The notes under the pieces were generated by a model. That model ran no database searches and was not told the origin of the DNA. It saw only the letters and a program-made list of their open reading frames with translations. Made by a program: the position numbers and the translations under genes. From a virus (Duplodnaviria; Heunggongvirae; Uroviricota; Caudoviricetes), in the IMG/VR virus record IMGVR_UViG_2534681831_000032: 2,910 nucleotides of DNA. The stretch is one strand, 5' to 3'. Each line of letters starts with the position of its first letter. Position 1 is the stretch's first letter. This document shows positions 3-1,489 of this stretch, one piece after another.

Positions 3-515
3 AAATACATTACTGAATACCTGACTACAAAGGGCGTGTTTGAGAATGAAGAAACAGACCTGGGCACTGTTGATGTTCTCCAGTCATCAGAAACACAAAC
101 TGATGCAGTGGAAACTGAGGTATCTGATATCCCAAAAAATGAAACCGCGCCGGAAGCTGAACCATCTGTAGAGCGTGAGGGGCCGTTCTATTTCCTCTTC
201 GCAGATAAGGACGGAGAAAAATACGGTCGCGCAAACAAACTTTCTGGTCTGGATAAGGCACTGGCTGCTGGCGCCACTGAAATCACAAAAGAAGAATATT
301 TTGCCCGAAAAAATGGCACATACACGGGCTTACCGCAAAATGTAGATACCGCTGAAGATTCAGAACAACCAGAGCCGATAAAAGTTACCGCTGACGAAGT
401 AACAAAATTATGCAGGCAGCCAATATCAGCCAGCCTGACGCCGATAAGTTGCTTGCTGCCTCTCGCGGAGAATTTGTTGCAGGGATTAGCGACCCGAATG
501 ATCCGAAATGGGTAA
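3..515 (+). CDS. Hypothetical acidic protein, 5'-partial (reading frame open to the left window edge; annotated GTG at 36 is probably internal)
   Basis: Frame 0 is open from position 3 to the TAA at 513-515 (about 171 codons, no stop). The ORF-track start (GTG at 36) is preceded by in-frame sense codons back to the window edge, so the gene most likely begins upstream. The product is strongly acidic (E/D/T/S-rich, e.g. [29 protein letters not shown]). The last ~35 codons (about 411-512) are rich in codons that are rare in enterobacteria (AGG, ATA, TTA, TTG, CGA) and overlap the next ORF, so the true 3' end is uncertain. Confidence 0.5.
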
Positions 516-1489
516 AGGGGATTGAAACCCGCGATTCTGTAAACCAGAACCAGCAAGAATCGGAACAGAACGACCAGAAAGCGGAACAAAACAGCCCAAA
601 TACGCAACAAAACGAGCCAGAAACGAAACAACCTGAGCCAGTAGCGCAACAGGAACCGGAAAAAGTCTGCACCGCCTGCGGTCAGACCGGCGGCGGCAAC
701 TGCCCTGATTGTGGCGCGGTGATGGGCGACGCAACATACCAGGAAACATTCGATGAAGAGTATCAGGTTGAAGTTCAGGAAGATGATCCGGAGGAAATGG
801 AAGGCGCTGAACATCCACACAAGGAGAACACTGACGGCAATCAGCATCACGATAGCGATAATGAAACTGGCGAGACGGCAGATCACTCAATTAAGGTGAA
901 CGGTCATCAAGAAATCACATCCACCAGCAGGACGTGTGACCATCTAATGATCGACCTTGAAACCATGGGAAAAAATCCTGATGCCCCGATCATCTCAATA
1001 GGTGCAATATTTTTCGATCCGCAAACCGGAGATATGGGACCGGAATTTAGTAAGACTATCGATCTGGAAACTGCTGGCGGGGTCATTGATCGGGACACCA
1101 TTAAATGGTGGCTTAAGCAATCACGCGAAGCGCAATCTGCCATTATGACCGATGAAATCCCGTTAGATGATGCACTGTTACAATTGCGGGAATTTATCGA
1201 CGAAAACTCCGGTGAATTTTTTGTTCAGGTCTGGGGAAATGGAGCCAACTTCGACAACACGATTTTGCGCCGTTCATACGAACGGCAGGGGATCCCCTGC
1301 CCGTGGCGTTACTACAACGATCGCGATGTACGCACAATCGTTGAGCTGGGGAAAGCCATAGACTTCGATGCCAGAACGGCTATTCCATTCGAAGGTGAGC
1401 GCCATAATGCACTTGATGACGCCCGTTACCAGGCAAAATACGTTTCAGTTATCTGGCAAAAACTGATCCCGAATCAGGCTGATTTTTAA
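410..1489 (+). CDS. DEDDh-family 3'-5' exonuclease (DnaQ/RNase T-like) with an N-terminal acidic low-complexity region and a CxxC-x7-CxxC zinc-knuckle motif
   Basis: Frame 2 is open for 359 codons from ATG 410 to TAA 1487-1489. The C-terminal domain carries the three exonuclease motifs: Exo I (MIDLETMG, D182 at 953-955 and E184 at 959-961), Exo II (WGNGANFD, D282 at 1253-1255) and Exo III ([14 protein letters not shown]332 at 1403-1405 and D337 at 1418-1420, an H-x4-D pattern that resembles the DnaQ epsilon-subunit motif as recalled). The N-terminal ~180 aa are acidic and Q/N/E/P-rich and contain C87/C90/C98/C101 (668-712, [16 protein letters not shown]). The start is uncertain: alternative in-frame starts are GTG 718, ATG 721 and ATG 947, and no start has a convincing Shine-Dalgarno sequence. 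Confidence 0.8.
540..665 (+). repeat. T-poor, A/C/G-rich imperfect short-repeat tract (CAGAAC/GAACAG-like units) encoding a Q/N/E/P-rich low-complexity linker
   Basis: Read directly: cagaaccagcaagaatcggaacagaacgaccagaaagcggaacaaaacagcccaaatacgcaacaaaacgagccagaaacgaaacaacctgagcca. It translates in frame 2 to [40 protein letters not shown]. It is a compositionally biased coding tract, not a tandem repeat of exact copies. Confidence 0.6.

Follow-up and report, generated by a model that had tools for sequence, protein, structure and literature searches.

The 2,910-nt stretch of viral DNA analysed here (IMG/VR record IMGVR_UViG_2534681831_000032, Caudoviricetes), the whole of which is called the window below, contains a 359-aa open reading frame (ORF) at positions 410–1489. 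A preliminary description, made from the letters alone, had taken this ORF for a DEDDh 3'–5' exonuclease with a long disordered N-terminus. Very probably, the ORF is the 3' portion of one gene split by a frameshift, and this gene encodes a full-length exonuclease of the ydfE family with a RecE-like linker and a DEDDh domain. The present copy is either a pseudogene or the result of a homopolymer sequencing error.

The 359-aa ORF is indeed present on the + strand, from ATG 410 to the stop codon at 1487–1489. A second ORF, in frame 3, extends from GTG 36 to 515 and overlaps its 5' end; frame 3 is free of stop codons over nt 3–513, and frame 2 over nt 395–1487. DNA alignments with phage Tritos, Stx2_14040, E. 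coli strain 258E, and metagenome contig L006 indicate that the window lacks one A at 400/401: the relatives have GTAAACAAAA, whereas the window has GTAACAAAA. Since this A is missing, the gene reads as two overlapping ORFs, which explains the 359-aa appearance; the frames swap at this single base, and the ORF boundary at 410 is thus a product of the frameshift. When the base is restored, a single 496-codon ORF is obtained (nt 3–1489), and it aligns colinearly with the 823-aa exonuclease that is encoded by phages such as Tritos and by E. coli prophages. No further lesion was found in the remainder of the gene within the window. The pieces of the gene and the lesion between them are the following.

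Positions 3–401, + strand: upstream piece of the frameshifted exonuclease gene, in frame 3, running off the 5' edge of the window; approximately residues 329–461 of the 823-aa protein.
Positions 400–401, + strand: 1-bp deletion, AAA to AA within the codon AAC (Asn463 of the intact protein), moving the gene from frame 3 to frame 2.
Positions 410–1489, + strand: downstream piece of the same gene (the 359-codon ORF), residues 465–823 of the intact protein.

The deletion allele appears to be restricted to this record. Among 3,846 complete E. coli records that matched a 90-mer across the site, none aligned without a gap, and the best matches were 98.9% identical, differing by the gap alone. Exact-match scans with a 44-mer carrying the deletion did not find it in the genome, metagenome, and viral collections. 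The nearest sequence, E. coli contig L005, is 99.92% identical and begins at window position 408, just past the deletion site. It is quite possible, if on balance improbable, that the frameshift arose by an error in sequencing or assembly, in which case the gene would be intact in the real genome, with about 823 aa, and no 359-aa ORF would exist. This explanation agrees with the frameshift reading on the identity of the gene and differs on the status of the present copy alone. It is favoured by the private nature of the allele in all the collections listed above, by the nature of the lesion, a short A run being one base shorter, as is typical of homopolymer errors, and by the lesion-free remainder of the gene; in addition, the error-rich related metagenome contig L006 shows such assemblies fragmenting this gene. 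On the other hand, systematic homopolymer errors would be expected in runs longer than AAA, and independent genuine lesions are frequent in this gene, so a true private frameshift would be unremarkable.

The assignment of both pieces to one gene is supported by profile comparison. In the 823-position "exonuclease" profile of PHROG 2082, window 3–401 corresponds to positions 329–461 (E 9.5e-72) and the 359-aa ORF to positions 465–823. Window 3–401 is also aligned by tblastn to the exonuclease of strain 258E, with which the 359-aa ORF shares 96% identity. Met 410 is the internal Met465 in all intact homologues, and all close homologues read through the region in frame. ATG 410 has no Shine–Dalgarno sequence (−0.6 kcal/mol; 71% of window positions score as well), and a promoter-like site upstream of it was not found in the window-wide scan. 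ATG 410 appears not to be a gene start but the first in-frame Met past the frame break, and the N-terminus that had been placed at residue 1 of the ORF does not stand, as after the 1-bp repair the frame runs on upstream to the window edge.

A very improbable explanation is that ATG 410 starts an independent 359-aa gene, encoding a DEDDh exonuclease with its own disordered acidic extension and zinc knuckle. The ORF is unbroken from ATG to stop, 359-aa proteins have been called from the same Met in other assemblies (P0034, with 455 member sequences, and P0101), and in the wider family the DEDDh domain can work alone, as in stand-alone homologues of about 180 aa and in the E. coli protein EcD described below. 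However, the P0034 calls derive from 5'-deleted copies of the gene or from contigs beginning inside it, and in the P0034 sources the same-frame homology to the 823-aa protein begins at residue 368–448. The stop-free upstream frame is colinear with the same protein family up to the window edge, and the internal position of Met 410 in every intact homologue and the absence of a Shine–Dalgarno sequence and a promoter-like site also speak against a separate gene. Programmed −1 frameshifting, in which tRNA-Lys would slip on A_AAA (nt 404–407) and restore a functional full-length protein (...VTK-IMQ...), was set aside as extremely unlikely: AAA (405–407) would re-pair perfectly as AAA (404–406), followed by ATT ATG in the downstream frame, and the product would be identical to the intact protein except for one N-to-T substitution, but there is no canonical X_XXY_YYZ heptamer, a stimulatory structure was not seen, although no search aimed at one was made, all relatives are in frame and none needs a frameshift, the allele is private, and the result would at best be low-level leaky read-through. 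With the gene split by the frameshift, the full-length protein would not be producible from the present copy by normal decoding.

Within the downstream piece, the following features can be noted.

Positions 437–892, + strand: RecE-homologous acidic linker, ORF aa 10–161, approximately residues 454–591 of K-12 RecE.
Positions 548–651, + strand: degenerate 21-bp (7-aa) tandem repeat array, which is the Q/N/E/P-rich stretch (Tandem Repeats Finder: period 21, 4–5 copies, 72% matches).
Positions 668–712, + strand: CxxC-x7-CxxC knuckle, common with RecE; ORF aa 87–101, CNACGQTGGDNCPDC in K-12 RecE.
Positions 941–1456, + strand: DEDDh 3'–5' exonuclease domain of the Rv2179c/DexA family (Pfam PF16473, PDB match, DexA alignment).
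Positions 953–955, 959–961, 1253–1255, 1403–1405, and 1418–1420, + strand: catalytic residues D182, E184, D282, H332, and D337, respectively.

The first 178 aa of the ORF are acidic and Q/N/E/P-rich, as had been described, with 39 D+E and 11 K+R residues. Residues 8–161 match the NCBIfam RecE equivalog PRK09709 at positions 463–602 of 877. The level of identity between this linker and approximately residues 454–591 of K-12 RecE is 68%, and that between the linkers of the intact 258E homologue and the RecE of Rac-SA53 is 75% over about 150 aa; the knuckle is included in both cases. The similarity to RecE ends at ORF aa 161 (approximately RecE 591), before the RecE nuclease domain (3H4R, approximately 606–866). 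Judging from these alignments, the supposed N-terminal extension of a 359-aa protein is an internal linker of about 180 aa, common with RecE, within a protein of about 823 aa.

The claim that the frame upstream of ATG 947 remains open longer than expected, and under coding constraint, was borne out. For the base composition of the window, 179 open codons would occur by chance with a probability of about 6e-5, which is of the same order as the 2e-4 given earlier, and all close homologues are in frame through this region. The ratio of nonsynonymous to synonymous substitution rates is 0.12–0.28 before the knuckle, 0.3–0.5 across it, 0.75–0.94 in the acidic stretch after it, and 0.14–0.27 in the DEDDh domain. 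At the repeat array, the alignments with RecE are gapped by exactly 7 aa and 14 aa, and this suggests that repeat units are gained and lost in the linker. The AlphaFold2 (AF2) model of aa 1–178, built from a shallow alignment of 30 sequences, has a predicted local distance difference test (pLDDT) score of 50, with no residue at 70 or above and values below 60 throughout aa 10–161. It contains one short helix (aa 11–18) and a weak hairpin at the knuckle, both at low confidence, and suggests a largely disordered tether. A homologue search with the divergent knuckle-bearing linker of P0202 returned 54 proteins, mostly contig-end fragments, and did not deepen the alignment.

The CxxC-x7-CxxC motif reported at 668–712 is present. 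All four Cys residues are found in 102 of the 120 close homologues, while C87S occurs in 17 and C98Y in one. Both RecE-type and exonuclease-type proteins retain the motif as far as about 65% identity. Among 15 divergent representatives of the large DEDDh fusions, the acidic linker of about 150 aa is kept in 14 (the exception is P0143); the knuckle is present in three and absent from 12. The knuckle therefore does not appear to be strictly maintained in the family, and its putative zinc binding is plausible. The pLDDT at the knuckle is 56–59, at which the model is not reliable for the four Cys residues. The first-Cys-to-Ser sub-lineage comprises P0041, P0042, P0048, and 14 more homologues with lengths of 528–575 aa; the third-Cys-to-Tyr substitution belongs to P0035.

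The DEDDh domain that had been proposed to follow ATG 947 was confirmed by profile search, by the match to DexA, and by conserved catalytic residues. Pfam PF16473 ("Rv2179c-like 3'-5' exoribonuclease") covers ORF aa 178–349 with E 5.3e-68 and 228.6 bits (cut-off 27), over positions 2–177 of the 177-position profile. The founder of this Pfam family, Rv2179c of Mycobacterium tuberculosis, is a stand-alone chromosomal protein reported as a 3'–5' exoribonuclease; it has the same DEDDh motifs, and a phmmer search of the PDB at E ≤ 0.01 did not detect it. The ORF also matches PHROG 255 "exonuclease" (E 6e-80). In a PDB sequence search, the only solved relatives found were the T4 DexA structures 8KEL and 8KEN (E 1.6e-6). 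Residues D182 and E184 (MIDLET), D282 (NFDN), and H332 and D337 (RHNALDD) align to D7, E9, D119, H186, and D191 of DexA, which are its catalytic residues (PMC12153337), and these D-E-D-H-D residues are invariant in 12 homologues. The AF2 model of the 359-aa ORF (12 near-identical homologues) has a pLDDT of 33 and is unusable; its alternation of strands and helices is compatible with an RNase H-like fold, but at this pLDDT it was discarded as fold evidence.

T4 DexA (exonuclease A) is one of the close known comparisons: it is phage-encoded, belongs to the same Pfam family, and has the same catalytic residues. The level of identity with the present domain is 29%, and the latter has none of the extra loops of DexA. 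DexA is a 3'–5' DNA exonuclease, and its stand-alone E. coli homologue EcD ("HREX") cleaves DNA containing 5-hydroxymethylcytosine (5hmC) and protects against T4 (PMC12153337). EcD was compared by its published description and its primer-derived MIDTET start, and it was not among the top 150 representatives. DexA has a length of 227 aa and EcD is stand-alone, whereas the present domain is fused behind about 640 aa. Most of the 8,046 cluster representatives of the wider family (E ≤ 1e-10) are likewise stand-alone, 180–200 aa long, and start at the Met equivalent to that of MIDLET. The earlier intuition about ATG 947 was reasonable in view of these proteins, since most family members do start there; the present lineage is fused. 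The comparison of homologue starts, named earlier as a possible refutation, thus has a divided outcome.

Several points weigh against the proposed reading of the gene. The deletion allele was seen nowhere else, and because it is private, a true mutation and a sequencing error are not separable. The activity of the fused protein is predicted from its sequence. Both structure predictions are of low confidence (pLDDT 33 and 50), so the disorder of the linker and the metal site are suggested at most. The substrate, DNA or RNA, is uncertain by analogy, Rv2179c being a reported exoribonuclease. In the alignment with DexA, at 29% identity, W152 aligns to Tyr (Y302) and D169 to Phe within IDFDA, although a one-residue shift would give Asp for the latter. 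Residue D90 of the DexA tetramer is kept (D254), whereas it is replaced in EcD. Finally, PADLOC gave a weak, generic match to a Cas-associated DEDDh protein alone, which was not taken as evidence for a defence system. An enzyme of the EcD (HREX) type was set aside, as the domain is fused behind about 640 aa and the D90 equivalent is retained; EcD-like 5hmC specificity is not assumed, because W152 and D169 are not clearly kept and D90 is retained.

The gene split in the window can be identified by comparison with its intact relatives, in which it has a length of 2,472 bp and encodes 823 aa; window nt 3–1489 is its 3' 60%. Between ydfD (DUF1482) and xis–int, intact copies are found in the temperate phages Tritos and mEp460_ev081 and in the prophage of E. 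coli 258E that abuts ompW. Phage Evi encodes an 826-aa form that follows the kil gene. The full-length ydfE-family exonucleases of PHROG 2082 (WP_000034482.1 of 258E and TRITO_27 of Tritos) are 96–99% identical to the window part at the protein level and have the same domain order and the same neighbours (dicB and ydfD upstream, xis and int downstream); the difference is that they are intact, while the window copy is split into two ORFs by its private 1-bp deletion. K-12 ydfE, located in the Qin prophage (dicB-ydfD-ydfE-IS2-intQ), is 95% identical to the first 256 aa of the 823-aa homologue and, by this alignment, appears to be an IS2-truncated N-terminal remnant of the 823-aa gene. Precomputed Pfam matches to YdfE_N (PF27430) and YdfE_C (PF27432) are present on upstream gene fragments of a related contig; the corresponding part of the gene is located outside the window, on its upstream side. 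In the Pfam copy searched, which may lack these models, no YdfE_N or YdfE_C match was obtained for the intact homologue. The preliminary description could not place the three-part architecture in a characterised family; the match of aa 8–161 to the RecE model, PHROG 2082 "exonuclease", and the relation to K-12 ydfE now place it.

According to a preprint (PMC11430063), dicB, ydfD, ydfE, and intQ are transcribed from the dicB promoter and repressed by DicA. By synteny, the gene appears to belong to dicB-ydfD-exo-xis-int, an early-left operon under repressor control, in an E. coli lambdoid prophage of the ompW-adjacent type. Its position directly upstream of xis–int, noted earlier, is supported by Pfam matches and by the annotation of the relatives. 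This position was called a cargo slot; instead, it is the slot of the recombination genes in the early-left operon, syntenic with recE–recT upstream of xis–int in Rac.

The comparison with RecE (exodeoxyribonuclease VIII of Rac) indicates both common and exchanged parts. The acidic linker with its knuckle and the genomic slot upstream of xis–int are common to both, and the central region of RecE is weakly similar to the present family (NCBIfam positions 271–602). The C-terminal PD-(D/E)XK 5'–3' nuclease of RecE (3H4R, 606–866) is replaced here by the DEDDh 3'–5' exonuclease. The cut-off of the RecE equivalog PRK09709 (1269 bits) was not reached by the window ORF (229 bits) or by the intact homologue (286 bits), and PF12684 (PD-(D/E)XK) has no match on the intact homologue, whereas Rac-SA53 RecE has one. 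In Rac, recT follows recE; after the DEDDh forms in the window and in all DEDDh-type relatives examined, recT is absent and xis follows directly. From these matches, the intact layout appears to be an N-terminal body (YdfE_N, YdfE_C) distantly similar to the RecE central region, then the linker, and then the C-terminal DEDDh domain.

The same linker is also found between other partners. Protein P0122 (805 aa) combines the RecE N-terminal domain PF06630, the same linker, and a DEDDh domain, and the arrangement of PF06630, acidic linker, and DEDDh recurs in proteins that are only 45–63% identical. The effectors seen on RecE-like bodies are PD-(D/E)XK (RecE), DEDDh (the present family), and other short tails (P0130 and P0202). 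The linker may be a junction for module exchange. It can be proposed, as a speculation that is more likely wrong than right, that a RecE-like body with the linker is a general prophage platform for recombined C-terminal effectors, and that its DEDDh form would be a targeted DNA-degrading enzyme of defence or counter-defence and not of recombination. In proteins P0130 (683 aa) and P0202 (680 aa), PF06630, the same linker, and the knuckle are followed by sequence without a Pfam domain, neither PD-(D/E)XK nor DEDDh. Another side observation concerns the part upstream of the linker: window 3–401 contains a conserved frame-3 segment, especially at about 175–330, which matches no Pfam family, had no match found in the RecE proteins compared, and is kept in P0125 (901 aa; 60% identical to the 359-aa ORF over the matched stretches).

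As for the function of the intact protein, the DEDDh domain would remove nucleotides from the 3' ends of nucleic acids by two-metal catalysis. Since DexA and the E. coli homologue EcD act on DNA, this would, by analogy, also be the more likely substrate here. The nuclease might be tethered or targeted by the N-terminal body together with the flexible acidic linker. The polarity is 3'–5' and no annealase gene (recT) follows; for these reasons, the gene is not considered part of a RecET-type recombination pair. More plausible functions are the degradation of DNA that is incoming or competing, for example in defence against superinfection, and the processing of phage DNA ends.

The gene itself is already known: it is catalogued, has its own PHROG family and recent Pfam families, and thousands of genomes contain it under the annotation "exonuclease" or "3'-5' exoribonuclease". 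Of 5,426 complete E. coli genomes, 3,834 have a match to the 90-nt junction segment, at up to six places per genome. No functional study of the fused protein was found in a literature search. The only mildly new aspect is the variety of C-terminal nucleases joined to RecE-like N-terminal bodies. The wider interest belongs to the family and not to the copy in the window: in this family, a RecE-type body is joined to a nuclease acting with the opposite polarity, and the gene is located in the DicA-repressed dicB operon. Since a stand-alone relative defends against T4 (PMC12153337), a defence role of the fused form is testable. The role of the RecE N-terminal region is unexplained (PMC11611040), and interchangeable C-terminal modules may help to explain it. 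In annotations, it would be correct to treat the 359-aa ORF as one piece of a frameshifted ydfE/exonuclease gene and not as a new three-part protein.

The gene is very common and has been disrupted independently in several lineages, while it is intact in the active temperate phages examined (Tritos, mEp460_ev081, and Evi). A 4-bp deletion (one unit of GCAGGCAG, window 412–419; GCAG unit) is annotated in eleven PPompW and Stx2a phage records, about 12 bp downstream of the 1-bp deletion of the window. In Stx2a JNE phages, an in-frame stop replaces the conserved Trp of KWVKG, and the gene is truncated at its 3' end, after which transposase-like sequence follows. K-12 ydfE is a pseudogene interrupted by IS2. 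A 5' deletion is found in the prophage copies integrated next to rspB, at the Qin attachment site, and it is the reason for the other 359-aa calls from the same Met. The disrupted copies have the following positions.

Window, 400–419.
L001 (Stx2_14040), approximately 4400–4420.
L009, 1186–1188.
L012, 3844–4549.
L014, approximately 3710.

Short-read assemblies often break in the linker region, as in L005, and P0271–P0311 are fragments from contigs of 200–660 bp. Such breaks are probably due to the several near-identical copies per genome. Many "partial exonuclease" entries in the databases are contig fragments of this kind, and many entries of 575, 533, and 528 aa are 5'-shortened calls of the gene. 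In L018, homology to an 805-aa RecE-N/DEDDh protein can be traced in the same frame for about 540 bp further upstream than the called start.

Downstream of the exonuclease gene, the window contains two further genes.

Positions 1554–1802, + strand: xis, excisionase of 82 aa (Pfam PF07825 Exc, E 1.3e-7; annotated as excisionase in relatives).
Positions 1780–2910, + strand: int, lambda-type tyrosine integrase of 376 aa (Pfam PF09003 and PF00589; the prophage end abuts ompW in relatives).

These genes overlap by 23 nt (1780–1802). A Shine–Dalgarno-like GAGGA for int lies inside xis (−5.8 kcal/mol), and xis has no Shine–Dalgarno sequence (−0.4 kcal/mol). A GC-rich hairpin at 1501–1533, between the exonuclease stop and the xis start, has a stem of about 10–12 bp and lacks a U tract; the 76-nt stretch has a value of −22 kcal/mol, and the z-score relative to shuffled sequences is only −1.35. 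Across the window, no Rfam family was matched, and the numbers of promoter-like (1) and terminator-like (4) sites were not above the shuffled means (4.0 and 4.0). On the minus strand, an ORF of 232 codons (window 188–886) lies opposite the linker region and is most likely an effect of codon composition.

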